From Eledone cirrhosa (taxonomy: Eukaryota): a DNA stretch of 64,000 nt. Of this stretch, positions 16,925 through 64,000 are shown piece after piece. Under the pieces are notes generated by a model. The model was given only the letters and a program-made list of their open reading frames with translations, did not search any database and was not told where the DNA came from. Position 1 is the first letter of the stretch, and the number at the start of each line of letters is the position of its first letter. Where the stretch lies: NCBI GenBank assembly GCA_964016885.1, contig OZ024757.1, positions 38,874,001-38,938,000 of the forward strand, given 5' to 3'. The position numbers and the translations under genes are program-made.

Positions 16925-17510
16925 GTTTGAACCATTACTAGATACGTTTAAATGTCAGTTAGAATTCTTTACGATATTACTTCCAGGTCACTGTGCTCTG
17001 AGTTCGAATGCCACCGAGGTCAAGTTTACCATTATTGCCTTAGATGCCGATAAAACAGGTACCAGTCAGCTACTGGGCTAGTTTCTTTCTCTATATATCG
17101 ATTTCTTTCTTCACTCTTGTTGCTGGCAAAGGGCAGTGAATTGGCAGGATCGTTATAGCGTCTGACGTCATGCTTTCCAGCATAGTTACGTCCCTTTATG
17201 TTCTGAGTTCAAATCCCGCCGAGATTAACTTTTCCTTTCATCCTTTTCGGGGTCGGTAAAATAAAGTACCAGTAATGTACTGGTTTAATTACTGGCCTTG
17301 TGCCAAAAGTAGAAACAATTATTTTCCCCTGGATCAGTCAGTAGAACGTCGGACAACATGCTGATTTCTAATCAAGGCAATGTTAACTGTGCCTTTCTTC
17401 CTTACGTGGTCGATAAAATAAAGTACCAGTAATGCAGTGGGGTGCATTTAATCGAATTCCTCCTCCCCTAAAACCGCTAGCCTTGTGCCTAAATCAGAAA
17501 CCATTATTTC
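16925..17510 (+). mobile_element. Three tandem SINE copies (~16925-17080 degenerate, 17131-17323, ~17330-17510)
   Basis: Repeated GAGTTC(G/A)AAT B-box and GTCG(A/G)TAAAATAAAGTACCAG cores. Confidence 0.85.
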
Positions 17511-20340: not shown

Positions 20341-20404
20341 ATCTAAAGGATGGTAGGGAATAATTTGACCTAGATATATCTGCTCATTATAACACGTCAA
20401 AAAA

Positions 20405-20875
20405 GGGTGGTGTACTGGCAGTGATCGGTTGAGCGTCGGAGACCATGCTTTGTGATATAGAGTTATGGCCTTTTACGGTCTGAGTTTAGATCTCACCAAG
20501 GATAGCTTAGCATTTTATCCTTACGGTATCGATAAAATAAATCGAAGCACCAGTAATGCATTGGGCTCGATTTAGTCGACTTTCCCCTCTGTCCTAAAAT
20601 TGTTGACCTTGCACCTAAATAATAATCCCTTATATCACGTAAAAAAAAGGCAGTGAATCCGCAGTAATCAGTAGAGCGTCTCATACCATGATTTGCGGCA
20701 TGTAGGTACGGTTCTTCACGGTCTGATTTCAAATCTCGCTGAGGATATCTTTACTTTTCATCTTACGGGATCGATAAAATAAATGAAAGCACTAGTAATG
20801 CACTGGAGTGGATTTCATCGACTTTCCCCACTTCCCTAAAATTGTTGGCCTTGTGTCTAAATCATAAACCATTGT
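20405..20875 (+). mobile_element. Two tandem SINE copies (long-tail variant)
   Basis: Each has a head, ATCGATAAAATAAAT.GAAGCAC.AGTAATGCA and a TCGACTTTCCCC...CCTAAAATTGTTG tail. Confidence 0.8.
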
Positions 20876-21043
20876 AACATCTCAAATCAATCACCCACTT
20901 CGATACTCCCACGTCTTTTCTCGTCCGTTGAAATATGAGCCGCGTGTTCCATCTCAGTCAGAAGTAATTTTACTTAAATTACACCACTAAAGTGAATGTG
21001 AAAATATGAAATATTCTTTTGTGATTGTGCTTCTTCTTTTCTC

Positions 21044-23917: not shown

Positions 23918-24005
23918 ATAGAAGCCATTTCTATATTTAAAATGTATACTCTGATATGTATTGGGTACCTTACTTATGGTTCACCCCGATTGAACCCGGG
24001 ATACA
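23918..24005 (+). mobile_element. Family A 3' portion (tail) without palindrome
   Basis: TAGAAGCCATTTCTATATT...TATACTCTGATATGTATTGGGTACCTTACTTATGGTTCACCCCGATTGAACCCGGGATAC, similar to 41410-41496. Confidence 0.7.
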
Positions 24006-24084
24006 CATACGCACAGGCACATATATATATCTGAGTGAGTTTCTTGGTCAGTGTTCAAGTCTCAGACCCGTACAGCACAGACTC

Positions 24085-24481
24085 CACTACAGCAATGAAG
24101 AGGCGGATTTTCAGGTCTTTTCTATGGTGGATGGGTGCTACACGAGAATGTTGAGGATGGCTCTGAACATTAATCAGTATACACTGAGGATGAAGAACGC
24201 AGAGCTGTATGGGAGCCTCCCCAAAGTCAGCTCATAATTGACACAGAGGAGACTGAGGTTAGCTGGACATGCTCACCGACATCCACAGTTCACATTGCAC
24301 TCAGTGCTCCTGTGGGAGCCCCTGCATGGACGCACTGGAAGAGGAAGACCAAGGTTAACGTATGTTGATGCCCTGAGGACAGACACTGGTCTGTTGGAGA
24401 CGCAGGACATGGCAGCGATAATGAGGGACAGAGACCGCTGGAGAGAACTCGTCCATGGATCTCGGGAATTTTACCCGCCCT

Positions 24482-25254: not shown

Positions 25255-27612
<2,358 letters not shown>

Positions 27613-32397: not shown

Positions 32398-32523
32398 AAA
32401 GCGATTCTTTTGCTTAAACTTTAATCTGTTATTTTAATAAATATTTGCTCTATGGTTCTTGTATATTATATATTTATCCTTATCAAGCCTTCTTTGGACT
32501 TTAGTCTTCAAATTTATTATTAT

Positions 32524-32530
<7 letters not shown>
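32398..32530 (+). mobile_element. Family E dispersed repeat ending in (TTA)n-(TA)n
   Basis: GCGATTCTTTTGCTTAAACTTTAATCTGT..TTTTAATAAATATT...TTTATTATTATTACTA, shared with 39238-39370. Confidence 0.8.
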
Positions 32531-32565
<35 letters not shown>

Positions 32566-32566
<1 letters not shown>

Positions 32567-32755
32567 TGTCCCGGGTTCAATTAAAGGTAACAAGAGTAAG
32601 TATGATTTTCAATATAGTAGTAGAATGTAAATATGGTTAATAGAGAAACAGCTTCTACAGGACTAGTACTGTTTCTTTGAAACGAAATCACCAGGAAAAG
32701 ATTCCTGATGATTTCTTTTGAATGAAATAATTCTAGTCACGTAGAAGCCTTTCTG
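32566..32755 (-). mobile_element. Family A hairpin+tail element, older diverged copy
   Basis: Tail CCCGGGTTCAATTAAAGGTAAC, then GCTTCTACAGGACTAG...GAAATCACCAGGAA-AAGA-TTCCTGATGATTTC..GAATGAAA..TTCTAGTCACGTAGAAGC. Confidence 0.75.
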
Positions 32756-32777
32756 TTTTGGACATAATATATATATG

Positions 32778-32962
32778 TGTATGTAAAAGGTAAACAGAAA
32801 TAACACAATCGGTACAGTATATGGTAGGGATATATTAGTTTAAGGCTTGATATAGCAGGAAGAGGGTCTTAACGTTTCGGACGCTAGTCCTTCATCAGAG
32901 GAAAGAATGAGAAATAAGATAGCTTGAGGGGACGGGTGGGTTTTAATTGGAAAAATGTCTTT
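32778..32962 (-). mobile_element. Family C pLTR-like element with minimal hammerhead (core 32867-32902)
   Basis: Near-identical to 59962-60149. Minus strand: UCCU-CUGAUGA-A-GGAC-UAGC-GUCC-GAAAC-GUU-AAGA. Confidence 0.85.
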
Positions 32963-34909: not shown

Positions 34910-35062
34910 GGGTCGGGCAGCATAGTTACGGCCCTTTATGATCTGAGTTCAAATCACCCCGAGGTTAACATTGCCTTTCATCTATACGGGGTCGATAAAA
35001 TAAAGTACCAGTAATGCACTGGAGTAATTGCTGGCCTTGTGCCAAAAGTAGAAACAATTATT
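34910..35062 (+). mobile_element. SINE (main family), 5'-damaged
   Basis: CTGAGTTCAAATC...GGGGTCGATAAAATAAAGTACCAGTAATGCACTGG...AGTAGAAACAATTATT. Confidence 0.9.
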
Positions 35063-39204: not shown

Positions 39205-39367
39205 ATATATATCAGAAGACCCCGTTAAGGGTGAAAGCAGCGATTCTTTGCTTAAACTTTAATCTGTGATTTTAATAAATATTGGCTCTAGGGTTCTTAT
39301 ATATTTGATACATATTTATCCTTATCGAGCCCTCTTTGGATTTTAGTTTTCACATTTATTATTATTA

Positions 39368-39370
<3 letters not shown>
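39205..39370 (+). mobile_element. Family E repeat, longer copy
   Basis: Homologous to 32398-32530; 5' extension CAGAAGACCCGTTAAGGGTGAAAGC. Confidence 0.75.
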
Positions 39371-39406
<36 letters not shown>

Positions 39407-41031: not shown

Positions 41032-41076
<45 letters not shown>

Positions 41077-41080
41077 CATT

Positions 41081-41135
41081 TAATATAGAAATGGCTTTAA
41101 CAGGACTCGGACTGTTTCATTTGAAGGAAATCATG
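41081..41135 (-). mobile_element. Family A single-arm fragment
   Basis: TAATATAGAAATGGCTTTAACAGGACTCGGACTGTTTCATTTGAAGGAAATCATGAGG, similar to the family A arm. Confidence 0.65.
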
Positions 41136-41280
41136 AGGCAGCTCATGGATGTTATCCAACCATCTTGCTCAGGGTCTCCCCCTGGGTTTCTTGCCGATTG
41201 ATTTTGTCAGTAAAATTTGTACGACGATTCTTTCCTGAGAGATTCTAACCACATAACCATAGTATCGGAGCTGTGATCTA
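41135..41280 (-). mobile_element. RTE LINE 3' fragment (same family as 3385 and 15345)
   Basis: CTCATGGATGTTATCCAACCATCTT...GATTCTTTCCTGAGAGATTCTAACCACATAACCATAGTATCGGAGCTGTGATCT. Confidence 0.8.
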
Positions 41281-41307
41281 TTATATATATATATATATTT
41301 ATAGATA

Positions 41308-41496
41308 GTTCTAATATAGATGAGATTCTACAGGACTAGAACTGTTTCATTCTTTAGAAATCATCAGGATTCCTGATGATTTCTAAAGAATGAAACAGTT
41401 CTAGTCCTGTAGAATCTCATCTATATTAAAACTTTTATACTCTATGTATTGAGTACCTTACTTACTGTGGTTACCTCCGATTCAACCCGGAATAAC
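41308..41496 (+). mobile_element. Family A hairpin+tail element (perfect 58-bp arms, 1-nt spacer at 41370)
   Basis: 41312-41369 is the exact reverse complement of 41371-41428; the tail ends ...GATTCAACCCGGAATAAC; TA-rich flanks. Confidence 0.92.
41367..41417 (+). ncRNA. Type I hammerhead ribozyme motif (family A)
   Basis: GGAUUC-CUGAUGA-U-UUC-UAAA-GAA-U-GAAACAG-UUCUAGUC-CUGUA-GAAUCU. Stem I GGAUUC/GAAUCU, stem III ACAG/CUGU, GUA triplet. Non-canonical U.U at the base of stem II. Confidence 0.65.
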
Positions 41497-42366
41497 GTAT
41501 ATATATATACATACATATATATATATATATGTCGACAGATAGACATAAGTATAGAGATATGGACGTAGGTATAGAGATAAACATACATATAGACATATAC
41601 ACAGACTTGTATGTGTGTGTGTATGTGTGTGTGTGTATGTATGTGTGTATTTATATAAGTATAATACATATGTGATGGATATTAAGATAATACAAATATA
41701 CGGTCTTGTAATGTAAAATGAATGTCTTGCTTTTACTAGTAAGACGAGGAGGGGGAGTGTATTAGTATAATTTAACATTTCAAACTGAAACTATATATTT
41801 GACAGTTCTGAATATTCACAAATATTAGAAACCTACCATTTCACGAAACACTAATGATAATTATGTCTCTGGAAAATATCTATTAGACTAAATATATACC
41901 TTTAAACGTTCCATTCAAGCCTGAGTTTTGTTGAAAGCAGTTATCACACCGTACTTTGAAATATTGTCGGGAGAAGAGACCTTATGGAATAGAGGAATTT
42001 CTTTTAGGTTTGTATTGGCATCGTTTGAACCCCTACCATCTTTGTTGTTATACTTAACATGCAATTATTGTTTGTCTTGCATAGTGAATCTAAAGCTATA
42101 ATATCAAATGTTTGAGCATCCGTCGCTACTCACGATGAGTGTTCTGGTTGTTCGAAAACATTTAACGTTCTTTTACGAAATTTACGTATTGTGTAAAAGA
42201 TTTACTATTCTTGGGAATTCCAATATGATGTGTACCCTTAATTAAATTATTTGTGATATTTAGTCTGGTACTATATGTCAAGGCTGGCCTCTTAAATGAC
42301 TGACGCGTCGTCCAGAAAACAAAACGAAATAACACAAGAGGCTGGCTTGTAAAAAGTACTGACAGG

Positions 42367-42860
42367 AGGTGACGTAGCTAGAGTGTGTGCCACCCGGGGC
42401 AGCCCTTCAGTTTGTCGTTCCCGGGTCCCCACAAAAAATACATATTGGTCAGTGGCTCACCCTTATATACATATATATATATTTATATATATATATATAT
42501 ATATAAGTTATTCCGGGTTGAATCGGAGGTAACCACAGTAATTAAGGTACTCAATACATAGAGTATAACAGTTTTAATATAGAAGAGCTTCTATAGGACT
42601 AGAACTACATCATTCGTGAGAAATCATCAGGAAGCTCTGATGATTTCTCACGAATGAAACAGTTCTAGTCCTGTAGAAGCTCTTCTATATTAAAAATATA
42701 TATAATATATATATAAACTAGTCTGTACAATGATAATATTAAGCTGCATCATAAGAACGTTTCTAGTCTACAATATTCCCAAAAGTGCCGTCCCCATAAA
42801 TAAGTCACTCGAGGCAGACCAACCCTCCCCTTACTTGGCCCCGCTCTAGCTACGCTACTA
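42367..42860. mobile_element. Non-autonomous DNA transposon with CAGTGGCGTAGC-like TIRs and 8-bp TSD (hAT/P-like)
   Basis: AGGTGACGTAGCTAGAG ... CTCTAGCTACGCTACTA; flanks CTGACAGG / TTGACAGG. Confidence 0.65.
42507..42695 (-). mobile_element. Family A hairpin+tail element nested in a TA tract of the DNA transposon
   Basis: Tail GTTATTCCGGGTTGAATCGGAGGTAACC..., arms 42572-42630 / 42637-42695, spacer GAAGCT. Confidence 0.9.
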
Positions 42861-44990: not shown

Positions 44991-45185
44991 AGGGCGGTGG
45001 ATTGGCAGTATCGGTAGAGGGTCGGACGCCATGCTTTCCAGCATAGCTACGTCCCTTTACGATCTGAGTTCAAATCCTGTCGAGGTTGATTTTGCCTTTC
45101 ATCCTTACGGGGTCGATAAAATAAAGTAACAGTAATGTACTGGGTAATTGCTGGCCTTGTGCCTAAAGTAGAAACAATTATTATT
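44991..45185 (+). mobile_element. Full-length tRNA-derived SINE (reference copy)
   Basis: GGGCGGTGGATTGGCAGTATCGG (A-box), GAGTTCAAATCC (B-box), central core, (ATT)n tail; AATTATTATTAG on both sides. Confidence 0.93.
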
Positions 45186-45199
45186 AGTAGCAACAGGCT

Positions 45200-45412
45200 G
45201 TTTTATTAGCAGTACGTCGGACAACCTGCTTTGCGGTGTAAATTTATGCCTCTTTATGTTCTGAGTTCAAATCCTACCGAGGTTAGCTTTGCCTTTCACC
45301 CTTACGGGGGTCGATAAAACAAGGTACCAGTAATACATTTGGGTCAAATTAATCGACTTTCTCTTTCCCAAAAATTGTTGGCCTTGTGCCTCAATCAGAA
45401 ATCTGTATTATT
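45200..45412 (+). mobile_element. SINE, long-tail variant
   Basis: B-box, core, AATTAATCGACTTTCTCTTTCCCAAAAATTGTTGGCCTTGTGCC tail. Confidence 0.85.
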
Positions 45413-45484
45413 ACTGGGAGCAATAGTGTGTTGCATTGGAAAGCTTCGACCGTATGGTCTGAGGTCAAACCGCTTCTCTAATAA

Positions 45485-45735
45485 TAATTGTTTTTACTTT
45501 TGGCACAAGGCCAGAAATTATCCAGTGCATTACTGGTACTTCATAATGGTTTCTTATATAGGCACAAGGCCATTAATTCTGGGGGAGGGGAAAGTCGATT
45601 AAATCGAAACCAGTGCGTAACTGGTACTTTATTTTATCGACCCCGAAAGGATGAAAGGCAAAGTTAACCTCGGCGGGATTTGAACTCAAAGCATATTGTC
45701 CAACACTCTACCGATTCTGCCAATCCACTTCTCTA
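45485..45735 (-). mobile_element. SINE tail fragment plus a long-tail SINE on the minus strand
   Basis: CTGGTACTTTATTTTATCGACCCCGAAAGGATGAAAGGCAAAGTTAACCTCGGCGGGATTTGAACTC. Confidence 0.9.
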
Positions 45736-46124
45736 ATAATAATAATAATACTAAGCATTTTTTAAAAACATTTTCTTTGCTTCCTTTGGTTCATTTAATT
45801 CTTTTATATTTTCTATTAGCTTAGTTATTTTTTCTTCAGCTCGTACATCGTAAGGTGAGAAACAATTTCACACAGGTTTGTGCTTGACTGAAAATTAACG
45901 CTCCAACTTCTCTTATAATTGTCCTTAGTAATGGTGTAAGAATAAAAAAAATATAAAAAACAACAACAATAACAACAAAATCAACAACATTAATGATGTT
46001 TTCTGCATTCTTTTATTGGTTTCACGCGTAATTATATAATGTTAGTTTGTGCAAATACGTATGGATATTTATATTTAGAAAACATATGATCGCATTCACA
46101 GAGACGTACAAATCCGTGATAATA

Positions 46125-48189: not shown

Positions 48190-48233
<44 letters not shown>

Positions 48234-48234
<1 letters not shown>

Positions 48235-48409
48235 GAGGGCATTCCCAAAAGTAAGGTCTCCTTCCGGCATTGCAACGTTTCCGTTAAAATCCTGTGGATG
48301 GTGCTTCGGGAAACCTCAGGAACCAAAATGCAAAGAGCATCCAGAGTGATCCGCCAATCTTTACGCATGTTTTCCTCGGAAGGAGACCTTACTTTTGGGA
48401 TTGCCCTTG
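48234..48409 (-). mobile_element. Mini-mariner: two TIRs around an internal transposase fragment, TA flanks
   Basis: TIRs CGAGGGCATTCCCAAAAGTAAGGTCTCCTTCCG / CGGAAGGAGACCTTACTTTTGGGATTGCCCTTG. The interior encodes RKDWRITLDALC..VPEVSRSTIHRILTETLQCRK (mariner second HTH, upstream of the WVP motif). Confidence 0.85.
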
Positions 48410-48413
48410 TATA

Positions 48414-48609
48414 TAATTACTGCGCGAAATTCGCATTTGGAGGTAACGTTCAGCGGCTGCCAAGCCAAGATTGAGTATCCCAGCGAAGTGCGCGCATGCT
48501 TGTTTGGGAGTGAAGGAAGCACCAATCACAACAGTGTTGCCAACAGCCGTACGAACAGTTTCTCTGCGTCCCCATCGCTTTGGAGACCTTACCTTTGGGA
48601 TTACCCTCG
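48414..48609 (-). mobile_element. 5' end of the same mariner family (TIR, leader, transposase N-terminus)
   Basis: Third TIR at 48582-48609 + TA; the minus strand reads PLNVTSKCEFRAVI, like mariner N-termini. Confidence 0.7.
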
Positions 48610-48956
48610 TATATATATCTTCATGATGGTCTGGCCTCTTAACTCCCTTAAGTTATGGAAGTATTTGTTCATCTGAATGTCTCACACTTAAATCTTCTCT
48701 AACCATTTGTCGAATCATCAAGAGAGGTTGTGAAATATATATATTCAACATATCTGATACATTTTGTAGGCGGGAAGGGCGTCAACCCACTGCGCAGCTC
48801 ATGTGCCCCCGCCCTCGTAACAAACGCCGACCGAGGTGATGATCAGAAACTATTTGAGCCATTTTTTTAGGCTAACAGGAGCCTACCGCCTCTGCCCAGC
48901 TCGGCCATATCGACCATCTGCATCAAGGCCCAGTGTGACCTTGTATATATATATAT

Positions 48957-56487: not shown

Positions 56488-56680
56488 GGGCGGTGGATTG
56501 GCAGTATCGGTAGAGGGTCGGTCGCCATGGTTTGATGCATAGTTACGCCCCTTTCCATTCTGAGTTCAAATCCCGCCGAGGTTAACTTTGCCTTTTATCG
56601 TTACGGTGTCGATAAGATAAAGTACCAGTAATAGACTGGGGTAATTGCTGACATTGTGCCAAAAGTAGAGACAATTATTA
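56488..56680 (+). mobile_element. Full-length SINE (main family)
   Basis: Same head, boxes, core and ATT tail as the 44991 copy. Confidence 0.92.
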
Positions 56681-58037: not shown

Positions 58038-58212
58038 TTCCAATTCCAACCCACCCGTCCCTTCAATCTATCTTATTTCTCATTCTTTCTTCTGGTGAAG
58101 AACTAGTGTCCGAAACGTTAAGACCCTATATCAAGCGTTAACCTATATATTCCTTCAATATGCTGTACCGATTATGTTTTTATTTCTGTTTACCTTTTAC
58201 ATACATACATAC
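58038..58212 (+). mobile_element. Family C element with mutated hammerhead (CUGGUGA), (ACAT)n tail
   Basis: TCTT-CTGGTGA-AGAACTAGTGTCC-GAAACGTTAAGA at 58088-58123; reverse complement of the 32778 and 59962 copies. Confidence 0.85.
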
Positions 58213-58420
58213 ATAGGAAAAGAGTCAGAACCCCTACGGCAGAGCTGAAGCCATTTCGACAGCTATTTCTGGACTCAAGAAAAAGCTGTCCGGAAATCGC
58301 TGTCGAAACGGCTTGAGCTCTGCCGTTGAGGTTCTGACTCTTCTATTACACACTCTACTACCCAAAGTATCGAGCACCCTGGTGCGTTATGGTCCACCTG
58401 TTTCCTTACGACACTTCCTT
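58213..58420 (+). mobile_element. Family B hairpin+tail element
   Basis: Arms AGAGTCAGAACCCCTACGGCAGAGCTGAAGCCATTTCGACAGC / GCTGTCGAAACGGCTTGAGCTCTGCCGTTGAGGTTCTGACTCT; tail CACTCTACTACCCAAAGTATCGAGCAC...ATGGTCCACC. Confidence 0.85.
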
Positions 58421-59654
58421 CATTATATATATATAATGTGTGTGTGTGTGTATTTACTTTCCTTCTTATAACTTGCCAAATTATTCACGGCCTTCTCATG
58501 TTTGAAAAGCTTTCAATAATTATATTTTTTCTCAGCTAGACACTTCACAAAATTTATATTGCCAAATCATTTAAAGAATAGTTCAATGATTACTAAAATG
58601 TTGTTTAATTGAATAGAATACGTTTAAGATATATGATTTATTATTCTTGTAGGAGATGTTTTTTGTGTAAAATTATGTAATCTTCACAAAATATTTACTA
58701 ATCAGTCACATCTTCATAAACATTTAATTCTTTTCATATTAAACTTATTTTTAGATATTAATTTCTCTCCTGACTTTATTTTTGATTTTAACTATTTTAT
58801 AGAGACTTCTTTCAAACGTTAAGACATTCTTTGAATAGCGTTTAAATTATACATTTATATTTTTATATATGTTTTCTAAACACTCCAGCCAAAATCTTTT
58901 ACGTTGTAGTCTAAAAAGAGAGAGAAAAAACAACAAACATCTGTGAAATAATTTAATGAGAATGCGAACATAAACAAATACAAACGAAAATCAACGTCCC
59001 TTCTAAAAGACCATAGACAATTTTAAATTGCGTTGAGATTGCTTGCTTAAAATTATGCATAATGATAGGATAAATGAATTACTTAAAATAGTTTTATTTC
59101 TATAGTGCCTAGAACGTTAATAAATAATAAATGTATAGACCAAATTATTATTCAAATATTTCAAAGTTATTGATAAATATAGATAAAATAAAATATACCT
59201 CTTATTCAAAAAGTTTTGATGGAAAAGGAAAGATAAATTTTAATTCCGAACCAGAATCTGCCATTATTATTATGCACTCTATTTAATTTGTTTACTACTT
59301 TAATTTTCAACTTAATAATTGTTGTACGTACACACAAAGACACACACAAGCATACACACACGTTAATAGCTCTTATAGGACCAGTTCTATTTCCCTACTG
59401 TGTAGAATATGTTTGAGAAACATAAGCACTCTGATTTAATCGTTGATTAGATTCCCTGAAGTTGTCGGTTATCTCCCATTTATGTGGGAACATTAACTGA
59501 CTAGCGCCCAAGTACCTAACTAGCGGAACATTTCAAAAAACGCCTCGTATATAATGCTCGTTAAATATCGTGGTGTTTGCAGGATACGATACTTAGCTTT
59601 CAATGAAATTTTGGGTGTACGTGCGTGTATGTATGTATGTATGTATATATATAT

Positions 59655-59932
59655 AGTTAAAACAAAAACAATAACGAAGAGTGCAATACAAAGTGTTGGT
59701 ATTAGGTTCACGATTGAGAGTGGGGTGGGGTATGACGTTTCGGACATAGGCCTTTCATCGGGAGAAAAGTGGGAAGGAAAAGATTTCCGATGGTGTGAGG
59801 GGTAGTGGTGGAACGACATAAAGAAACAAGTTTTGGGAGAGAGTTTTGGGAAAAGTAAAGAGGTTGACCACGGTGAATTGAGTCGGGGTTGAGCCGGTGG
59901 TCGAAATCCTACGGATGAAGACTGGTGGAGAT

Positions 59933-59935
<3 letters not shown>
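59655..59935 (-). mobile_element. Family D pLTR-like element with degenerate hammerhead
   Basis: Between TA tracts; minus strand CCGAUGA-AAGGCCUAUGUCC-GAAAC-GUC at 59734-59761, with a CT-rich leader. Confidence 0.55.
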
Positions 59936-59961
<26 letters not shown>

Positions 59962-59970
<9 letters not shown>

Positions 59971-60149
59971 AAAGGTAAACAGAAATAACACAATCGGTAC
60001 AGTATATGGAAGGGATATATTAGGTTAACGCTTGATATAGCAGGAAGAGTGTCTTAACGTTTCGGACGCTAGTCCTTCATCAGAAGAAAGAATGAGTAAT
60101 GAGATAGATTGATGGGACGGGTGGGTTAGAATTGGAAAAAATGTCTTTA
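59962..60149 (-). mobile_element. Family C pLTR-like element
   Basis: Near-identical to 32778-32962; abuts (TA)n. Confidence 0.88.
60052..60087 (-). ncRNA. Minimal type I hammerhead ribozyme (Penelope-type, palindromic stem III)
   Basis: UCUU-CUGAUGA-A-GGAC-UAGC-GUCC-GAAAC-GUU-AAGA: intact core, 4-bp stems I and II, loopless AACGUU stem III. Confidence 0.8.
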
Positions 60150-60484: not shown

Positions 60485-60690
60485 TGGTAGAACGTTGGAC
60501 ACCGTGCTTCGTTGTATAGAGTTACAGCCCTTCGCGTTCTGAGTTTAAATCCCGCCGAGGTTAGCTTTGCTTTTCATTCTTACGGGGTCAATAAAATAAA
60601 GAATCAATAACGAACTGGGGTGGATTTAATCGACTTACCCGCTTCTCCTAAATGTTTAGCCTTGTGATTAAATAAGAAACCACTATTTAA
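60485..60690 (+). mobile_element. SINE, long-tail variant
   Basis: GAGTTTAAATCCCGCCGAGG...CTTACGGGGTCAATAAAATAAAG...GATTTAATCGAC. Confidence 0.85.
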
Positions 60691-63348: not shown

Positions 63349-63514
63349 AGAGGTTCGGACGCCATGCTTTCCAGCGTAGTTACATCCCTTTACGATCTGA
63401 GTTCAAATCCCGCCGAGGTTGACTTTGCCTTTCATCCTTACGGGGTCGATAAAATAAAAGTACCAGTAATGCACTGGGCAATTGCTGGCCTTGTGCCTAA
63501 ATTAGAAATAATTA
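63349..63514 (+). mobile_element. SINE (main family), slightly 5'-truncated
   Basis: CTGAGTTCAAATCCCGCCGAGGTTGACTTTGCCTTTCATCCTTACGGGGTCGATAAAATAAAAGTACCAG. Confidence 0.92.
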
Positions 63515-63533
63515 TATATTTATATATTTATAT

Positions 63534-63641: not shown

Positions 63642-64000
63642 TTGAATAAACAAGAGCGATGAACACTAATATAAATATACATATGTTCGAATCGTAAGGA
63701 CCAAATTTGCTAGGGTGAACAAATTCTAACTACACCAATATGGTTTGTTATCCTTAACTTTAAATATTAAATTAAGAGAAATAACAGACTTATATTGGGC
63801 AAAACGCCTGCTAGTTGTTACCAGGCGTTTTGCCCAATATTGGTATGTTATTGTTATTAAATTTTCTTAATTTAATATTTAAAGTTAAGGATAACAAACC
63901 ATATAGCTGTACTTAGTATTTTTTCACCCTAACAAATTTGGTCCTTACGATTCGAACGCATGTATGTTTATATTAGTGTCCATCACTCTTGTTTATTCAA
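63642..64000. repeat. Long imperfect palindrome (arms >=170 bp, loop 63811-63821) running off the window end
   Basis: ATATTGGGCAAAACGCCTG/CAGGCGTTTTGCCCAATAT at the centre; TTCGAATCGTAAGGACCAAATTTG/CAAATTTGGTCCTTACGATTCGAA; TTGAATAAACAAGAG/CTCTTGTTTATTCAA at the edge. Confidence 0.93.

Follow-up and report, generated by a model that had tools for sequence, protein, structure and literature searches.

Arms of short hammerhead-like palindromes in Eledone cirrhosa share the variants of their own copy and are likely derived from non-autonomous Penelope-like insertions

Five short palindromic insertions of two repeat families (A and B) were identified in a 64,000-nucleotide stretch of Eledone cirrhosa DNA (contig OZ024757.1, positions 38,874,001 to 38,938,000; the window), and the two arms of each palindrome were confirmed to be grouped by locus at informative sites. 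Probably, both arms were made at insertion from one template. The insertions are short and non-coding, and were likely mobilised by a Penelope-like element (PLE) reverse transcriptase-endonuclease that probably copied both arms from one RNA.

The window looks like animal non-coding DNA, with a GC content of mostly 25-37% that is much lower within arrays, and (TA)n, related microsatellites and short interspersed repeats are dense throughout. A plain inverted-repeat search of the whole window was swamped by (TA)n, and repeats were therefore searched by self-BLAST with a complexity filter. Together with profile searches, this assigned three palindromes (41k, 42k, and 32k) and two solo copies (41.1k and 24k) to family A, and two palindromes (10k and 58k) and one truncated copy (13k) to family B (Table 1). 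Profile search revealed no further clear copies of either family in the 64 kb, two weak family A matches (E 0.045 and 0.45) being excluded from the set, and the exact family A pattern gave no match among the bacterial and archaeal genomes scanned. The palindromes are beyond chance, their hairpin scores being 60, 47, 20, 40, and 37, whereas 40 dinucleotide shuffles of each reached at most 8-11. Total insertion length is approximately 190-210 bp, with no ORF inside.

Table 1. Positions of family A and B copies and associated features in the window
Feature	Family	Positions	Strand	Remarks
42k whole insertion	A	42507-42695		paired portion 42570-42695
42k long arm	A	42507-42638	-	hammerhead-like motif, GAAA box broken; helix I 5' strand 42631-42638; unpaired tail of ~63 nt, 42507-42569
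42k short arm	A	42637-42695	+	CUGAUGA 42637-42643, GAAA 42656-42659; cleavage predicted from the hammerhead consensus after GUA 42675; end 20 nt beyond, TA-rich repeat
42k arm overlap	A	42637-42638		2 nt
42k spacer GAAGCT	A	42631-42636		part of helix I 5' strand of long arm
42k (TA)n flank		42464-42506
41k long arm	A	41368-41497	+	core letters intact; tail 41434-41497
41k short arm	A	41307-41369	-	62/63 identity with 41k long arm; youngest copy
32k long arm	A	32566-32697	-	oldest copy, 76% arm identity
32k short arm	A	32695-32765	+	~7 nt further 5' than 32k long arm
41.1k solo short-type arm	A	41070-41146	-	5' end joined to 3'-truncated LINE-like fragment 41140-41279
24k solo with tail	A	23918-24003	+	start within ~3 nt of predicted cleavage site
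10k long arm	B	10335-10450	-	GAAAC box mutated; helix III, tail
10k short arm	B	10470-10529	+	junction 10451-10471 AT-rich
58k short arm	B	58214-58279	-	~5-10 nt further 5' than 58k long arm
58k long arm	B	58288-58422	+	tail in longer form
13k truncated copy	B	13878-13968	+	8-nt inverted mini-arm 13878-13885, then tail, then SINE-like fragment

The original prediction held that each copy carries its own motifs in both of its arms, and an exact string check found the quoted motifs as stated in eight of eight cases. Both 41k arms contain TTTCTAAAGAAT (41380, plus strand; 41349, minus strand) and GATGAGATTCTA (41319, plus; 41410, minus), which are absent from the 42k copy, while both 42k arms contain TTTCTCACGAAT (42644, plus; 42612, minus) and GAAGAGCTTCTA (42582, plus; 42674, minus), which are absent from the 41k copy. 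In family B, AGGACC/GCTGAGC is found in both 10k arms only and AGAACC/GCAGAGC in both 58k arms only. These diagnostic differences sit in loop II and the helix I 3' strand of the motif described below. The spacers had also been said to differ, and proved to be T (41370) in 41k, GAAGCT in 42k and AAGA in 32k. The more general claim, that arms are closest within their copy by raw identity, stood for 41k, 10k, and 58k and failed for the other two palindromes. Within-copy arm identity was 98% for 41k, 92% for 42k, 76% for 32k, 90% for 10k, and 84-89% for 58k depending on the alignment; the 42k short arm matched its own long arm and the 41k long arm equally well (56/61 in each case), and at 32k the order was reversed, the within-copy value of 48/63 (76%) being lower than that of the 32k long arm with the 42k short arm (49/61, 80%).

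Quartets of arms from two copies were scored for sites supporting the locus, the long|short and the crossed grouping, respectively. For family A, where the three quartets are non-independent, the counts were 4:0:0 (41k/42k), 8:1:0 (41k/32k), and 5:0:1 (42k/32k). The family B quartet gave 9:0:0 in the MAFFT alignment, and when aligned by hand five substitutions and 1-2 gap columns supported grouping by locus against none. A tree of all arms had been suggested as a check, and separate clades of long and short arms were rejected by AU tests both in family A (seven arms, p = 0.00045) and in family B (four arms, p = 0.001), while the unconstrained tree gave strong support only for the 41k pair and the family B pairs. 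Since the same source variants occur in both arms, one template or one source locus is indicated rather than a random pair of family members.

The original prediction had further argued against simple copying of an old palindrome, and the AU tests agree in both families. Copying of a single ancestral palindrome without remaking or conversion is practically untenable, as every copy has a different junction, and what speaks for it is a single site of the 41k/32k quartet that supports the long|short grouping. Fold-back artefacts of sequencing, amplification or assembly are very unlikely: the 98% identity of the 41k arms would fit such an origin, and the case is judged on assembled sequence, but the arms differ by 2-24%, the symmetry ends at the element with only chance matches of 11-20 nt in flank alignments (four loci), and the same element end positions recur over five loci and two families. 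That the symmetry is absent from the unique flanks and that the 41k and 42k flanks are unrelated argues against both an artefact and a local duplication; an origin of 42k by local inverted duplication of 41k was rejected, as the unique flanks are unrelated and gave no alignment.

All five palindromes share a common order of microsatellite ((TA)n or related), short arm, head-to-head junction, long arm with tail, and microsatellite. Read in the sense of the ribozyme-like motif, the short arm is antisense and the long arm sense, and the two are joined at their 5' ends. Relative to the predicted cleavage site, with arm boundaries drawn by eye and the 10k short-arm register (41/19) set by hand, the arms start 39-49 nt upstream (10/10 arms) and end 19-22 nt downstream in the short arms (5/5) and 77-95 nt downstream in the long arms (5/5), and this arm-end register is constant across families A and B. 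Every palindrome has a tail of approximately 55-75 nt on one end only, and the outer ends of the copies are TA-type microsatellites, which makes target-site duplications unreadable. On the 5' side, the long arm reaches further in 41k and 42k and the short arm in 32k and 58k, 10k being ambiguous. Because the short arm of 32k and 58k has extra 5' letters and the long arm has the tail, each arm has template that is absent from the other.

The junction sequence is different in every copy. Family A spacers are leftover helix I 5' strand, and in 42k eight letters of the long arm pair with the helix I 3' strand of the same copy. The truncation point of the 13k copy falls just short of the proximal site, and the 8-nt inverted arm of this copy matches the 58k short arm at its outer end; the 7-mer of this mini-arm follows 1 of 1258 TA runs. 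The grouping by locus, the uniformly different junctions and the inverted arm of its own in 13k support the claim that the second arm is made anew for each insertion. At 41.1k, the join of the solo arm to the LINE-like fragment (41070-41279) takes the place of a long arm and passes through a short common stretch, and this fusion may have arisen by template switch between two RNAs or by deletion of the long arm. The tails of families A and B have GTATTGAGTAC in common, with four exact matches that are all in long arms; allowing two mismatches, its count was below chance. Stem-loops can be drawn in the tails, with a stability no greater than that of shuffles. The stretches immediately 5' to the family B short arms (10451-10471 and 58274-58287) are rich in T and terminate in AG, resembling a 3' splice site. 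In Drosophila Penelope an intron ends at helix I, according to a passage of PMC4209133, and by analogy a link between the T-rich/AG end and the junction position may be imagined, although this is speculative.

Each family A arm carries a motif resembling a type I hammerhead ribozyme, and family B carries a degenerate form. The order in family A is helix I 5' strand, CUGAUGA, a short helix II with a variable 4-nt loop, and GAAA, followed by a 4-bp helix III, a loop with palindromic CUAG, GUA, and the helix I 3' strand. The pattern CTGANGA-N8-35-GAAAC matched six times in the window compared to 0.18 expected, with three matches in family A arms and two in family E (see below), and the type I fold of family A left 89.6% of 77 cells paired compared to 32-52% in slid controls. 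Helix covariation in family A was not significant (55/500 shuffles), minimum-energy folds of nine segments showed no stability gain over shuffles, and position 10.1-11.1 is U-U in place of the usual G10.1-C11.1. In Rfam, Hammerhead_3 reached 21.6 bits at 41k, below the gathering cut-off of 48.5, and no hammerhead match was obtained at 32k; among the 150 of 322 matches listed for the whole-window scan, all were sub-cut-off microRNA-like hairpins or microsatellites. Because of the U-U at 10.1-11.1, the null results for covariation and free folding and the Rfam score far below cut-off, we term the family A motif hammerhead-like only, and self-cleavage is putative. Family B retains GAAAC, helix III, the palindromic loop and GUH, and lacks the CUGA box, so that only the 3' half of the core is present.

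Grouping by locus is predicted equally well if an older palindrome was copied whole and, at each locus, intra-hairpin conversion or quasi-palindrome correction afterwards made its arms alike. Under such conversion, converted and private mutations should be equally frequent in the ribozyme core, and they are not. In family A, none of the eight locus-shared columns lies in the core or helices II/III, a class that makes up 26 of the 63 columns, compared to 11 of the 21 within-locus mismatches (Fisher p = 0.012), and the same test in family B gave 0/9 and 3/15, respectively. With a conservative count of six events per family, the combined p was 0.047. Since the structural classes were drawn by hand and one old copy, 32k, supplies 15 of the 21 private mismatches, the class test is moderate evidence. 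The avoidance of the core is better explained if the copies inherited their variants from different source elements than by hairpin conversion after insertion; a spared core would be predicted if source elements were under selection and their copies then decayed neutrally.

Used as a clock, the tails gave a mixed result, against conversion at 41k/42k and favouring neither side in the other three pairs. Between the 41k and 42k tails, 2 of 63 sites (3.2%) differ, compared to 8 of 63 between the long arms (p = 0.095), and since this tail difference is lower than the mean within-locus mismatch of the two copies (4.9%), it leaves no room for mismatches erased by conversion. Such tails would need source elements that differ in the ribozyme and hardly in the tail. 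For 41k/32k and 42k/32k, tail divergence (27% and 30%) matches arm divergence (24% and 27%) and exceeds mean within-locus mismatch (13% and 16%), as conversion would have it. The junctions, however, differ in each copy and stay imperfect, and solo and mini-arm copies are present, and we find later homogenisation unlikely. Where the original prediction offered cDNA fold-back, template switch or conversion as the source of the likeness, conversion is disfavoured by the spared core, and fold-back, which corresponds to a proposal from 2013, does not explain 32k and 58k if the long arm alone folds back.

PLE insertions frequently have an inverted 5'-truncated copy at the 5' side, a tail of 30-40 bp on one end and a preference for microsatellites, as described in passages of PMC8557442 and PMC8969392, and the steps that form their tandem and inverted structures are called undefined in the former. 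Here, a head-to-head inverted 5'-truncated copy was found in the five palindromes and as the 13k mini-arm, the tail on one end only in five of five, though at approximately 55-75 nt against 30-40 bp in print, and an AT-rich/(TA)n target as TA-type microsatellite at the outer ends. Of a type I hammerhead, family A shows the core letters and three helices, but with the atypical 10.1-11.1 pair and below the Rfam cut-off, and family B shows the 3' half of the core. PLE repeats are described in parts of PMC4209133 as carrying type I hammerheads with a palindromic loop III that vary greatly among copies, and PLE remnants as having hammerhead pairs on opposite strands 100-700 bp apart. PLEs are reported to be active in Octopus vulgaris (PMC13282606, in part), and retrozymes are considered tandem, likely PLE-derived relatives in the accessible part of 10.64898/2026.07.22.740005. 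Judged by these structural features, families A and B are likely non-autonomous PLE-type insertions with an inverted pseudo-LTR structure. The hammerhead-like motif, the helix I origin of the family A spacers and the PLE-like layout go beyond the original prediction.

Among the 20 of 134 complex window ORFs scanned, no relevant Pfam match to a PLE reverse transcriptase or GIY-YIG domain was found, the single candidate ORF for a PLE protein had no Atlas match, and no ORF of either kind lies inside families A or B. A direct tandem of family A or B (pLTR-ORF-pLTR) was also absent from the window. Membership in the PLEs is therefore structural only, as no PLE protein was found in the window, and in view of the missing tandem the families are filed only as a likely non-autonomous PLE derivative. 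The lack of a PLE protein in the window would also fit an origin driven by something other than PLEs, i.e., a SINE-like RNA inserted by LINE twin priming, or a DNA transposon of the fold-back/MITE type, as would the LINE-like and SINE-like fragments fused to the 41.1k and 13k copies and the RT-related fragment at 24.2-24.5k. In twin priming, however, the inverted part of the RNA is a different one and no segment is covered twice, which counts against a LINE origin. MITEs have symmetric termini, matching inverted repeats and a fixed centre, whereas these palindromes are asymmetric, with unequal arms, no matching terminal inverted repeats, variable centres, and solo arms. Non-LTR retrozymes are defined by head-to-tail tandem units that each carry a type I hammerhead, and no such units were found either. 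Type I hammerheads with a palindromic loop III are in addition PLE traits (parts of PMC4209133), and a non-PLE origin appears quite unlikely.

The analysis also revealed several neighbouring elements in the window. Family E consists of solos of approximately 190-200 bp (32782-32952, minus strand; 58040-58200, plus; 59968-60140, minus) and a related copy (59665-59935, minus), and carries a minimal type I hammerhead with an extra A after A9, G10.1-C11.1, and a palindromic ACGU replacing helix III. Two family E copies have a common 5' end, no inverted arm was seen, and two copies share a microsatellite with a family A or B short arm. Family C, which we take to be SINE-like, is abundant with at least two subtypes (12146-12335, 17130-17508, 20387-20879, 34918-35062, 44991-45743, 56488-56680, 60486-60688, 63349-63520, and 2862-3045), and an inverted pair at 45255-45695 (71%) apparently reflects two separate insertions. 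At 13878-14071, the family B tail with its mini-arm is directly followed by the 3' part of a family C element. A larger palindrome at 63642-64000 (85% over 369 nt, centre near 63820), unrelated to families A and B, exits the window. The element at 48225-48618, presumably mariner-like, is MITE-like with terminal inverted repeats of approximately 37 bp, TA flanks, and a third internal repeat copy (48377-48415). An 86-bp unit repeated 4.5 times at 98% identity (15541-15926) lies inside a fragment of family D, which from its motifs we assume to be LINE-like, an identity that searches did not confirm. Just past the 24k solo, a LINE-like RT C-terminal fragment (24050-24480) has 71% identity with a PF00078-carrying protein. 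Arrays of (TA)n type occupy 7304-10334 (3.0 kb), adjoining the 10k family B tail, and 25268-27608 (2.3 kb), and a direct repeat of 160 bp at 90% identity (32400-32556 and 39239-39399) ends in (TA)n beside the 32k element.

As to how two arms could be copied from one RNA, we tentatively favour a dual-priming version of the insertion mechanism, which we place narrowly ahead of cDNA fold-back. The layout, the sharing of variants by locus and the fixed arm-end registers are observed; the steps are our reconstruction, and the sample of five palindromes is too small to decide the mechanism. First, a short source element corresponding to a PLE pseudo-LTR with its tail would be transcribed, and the PLE protein would nick both strands of a (TA)n target. 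One target strand would prime cDNA at a distal start site, 77-95 nt downstream of the predicted cleavage, to give the long arm, and the other at a proximal start site 19-22 nt after it to give the short arm. Both cDNAs would run to the same RNA 5' end or stall point, 39-49 nt before cleavage at the 5' edge of the ribozyme, and their ends would be joined head-to-head with small overlaps, losses or filler, producing the variable spacers. The arms would be identical at birth, bear the variants of the source element and then decay separately. It is possible, if rather doubtful, that a PLE protein dimer primes both target strands on one RNA at two fixed start sites and that both cDNAs stop at the 5' edge of the hammerhead, with arms born identical in every head-to-head insertion. 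The purified PLE protein has been described, in parts of a 2024 study, to cut AT-rich DNA, extend both strands, use uncleaved RNA as template, and start at two internal RNA sites bounding the tail (PMC11167929).

Dual priming accounts for the two fixed 3' registers, the solo short-type arm, the longer 5' ends of short arms and the varied joins, and would require strand displacement for two cDNAs on one RNA. The joint stops of the arms are more simply explained by self-priming of the same element at the same stage, in which the cDNA would reach the RNA 5' end, make a U-turn, copy itself to the proximal site and join the target. In each of the five palindromes the two arms stop no more than approximately 10 nt apart, and they also stop together at 13k, which is truncated elsewhere. 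Source variants are always common to both arms, and in 41k and 42k the long arm is longer at the 5' side and fold-back registers of 1-2 bp can be drawn. Self-priming on an antisense template was moreover the explanation given in 2013 for head-to-head junction palindromes in PLEs, in passages of PMC3846280. On the other hand, the short arm is 5'-longer in 32k and 58k, short arms run past earlier TATA-like microhomologies to an end of fixed register, and 41.1k is a solo short-type arm, although later deletions could also explain this solo arm and the 32k/58k asymmetry. No stable cDNA hairpin was predicted at the three family A junctions examined, but an enzyme-driven U-turn would need none. Fold-back through helix I was rejected, since it would put one core in the loop and both arms have the core. 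Self-priming in the form described remains doubtful, and we retain dual priming as a tentative reading.

The structure itself was already known, and the main inference of the original prediction is largely a published hypothesis. Among the papers listed in the literature searches, no title or abstract opening reports arms clustering by locus, and supplements of the cited papers may hold such alignments. Minimal insertions of this kind isolate the inverted junction and offer a test bed for the self-priming of 2013 versus the two-strand, two-start-site chemistry of 2024. If every head-to-head insertion is indeed born with identical arms through dual priming at two fixed start sites, arm-to-arm divergence would date each insertion, as with LTR pairs, providing a possible PLE insertion clock, and the many mini-palindromes then expected in the genome would allow the PLE inversion route to be settled from sequence alone.

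Compared to the inverted pseudo-LTRs of endonuclease-bearing PLEs, as far as passages of PMC3846280 and PMC8557442 describe them, the palindromes are alike in the head-to-head 5'-truncated copy, the junction palindrome, the one-end tail, the AT-rich/(TA)n target, and the unreadable target-site duplication. They differ in having no ORF and no direct pLTR, an insertion length of only approximately 190-210 bp, a tail of approximately 55-75 nt, and junctions that cluster at the 5' edge of the ribozyme, and the sharing of variants between arms by locus is not described in these passages. Like the minimal type I hammerheads of PLEs in parts of PMC4209133, the motifs have the CUGAUGA/GAAA core, type I order, palindromic loop III, an extra nucleotide after A9, copy-to-copy variability, and opposite-strand pairs. 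Unlike these, family A combines a helix III of 4 bp and its 8-nt loop with a helix II of 3 bp and U-U at 10.1-11.1, family B is without the CUGA box, and the motifs are spaced by less than 20 bp as compared to 100-700 bp; family E fits the minimal form closely, and more closely than family A. The non-LTR retrozymes in the accessible part of 10.64898/2026.07.22.740005 are likewise short, non-coding elements with type I hammerheads and a supposed origin from PLE pLTRs; they are defined by head-to-tail units, whereas head-to-head pairs or solos were found here. Finally, Poseidon of Anolis carolinensis in vitro, according to parts of PMC11167929, resembles the present insertions in its two RNA start registers downstream of the hammerhead, its AT-rich targets, and its use of uncleaved RNA as template, the whole motif being spanned in 10 of 10 palindrome arms here. 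The main text on Poseidon does not deal with inverted products, and the Poseidon starts lie approximately 85-90 nt and further from the cut, while those suggested by our arm ends lie at approximately 20 and 77-95 nt.
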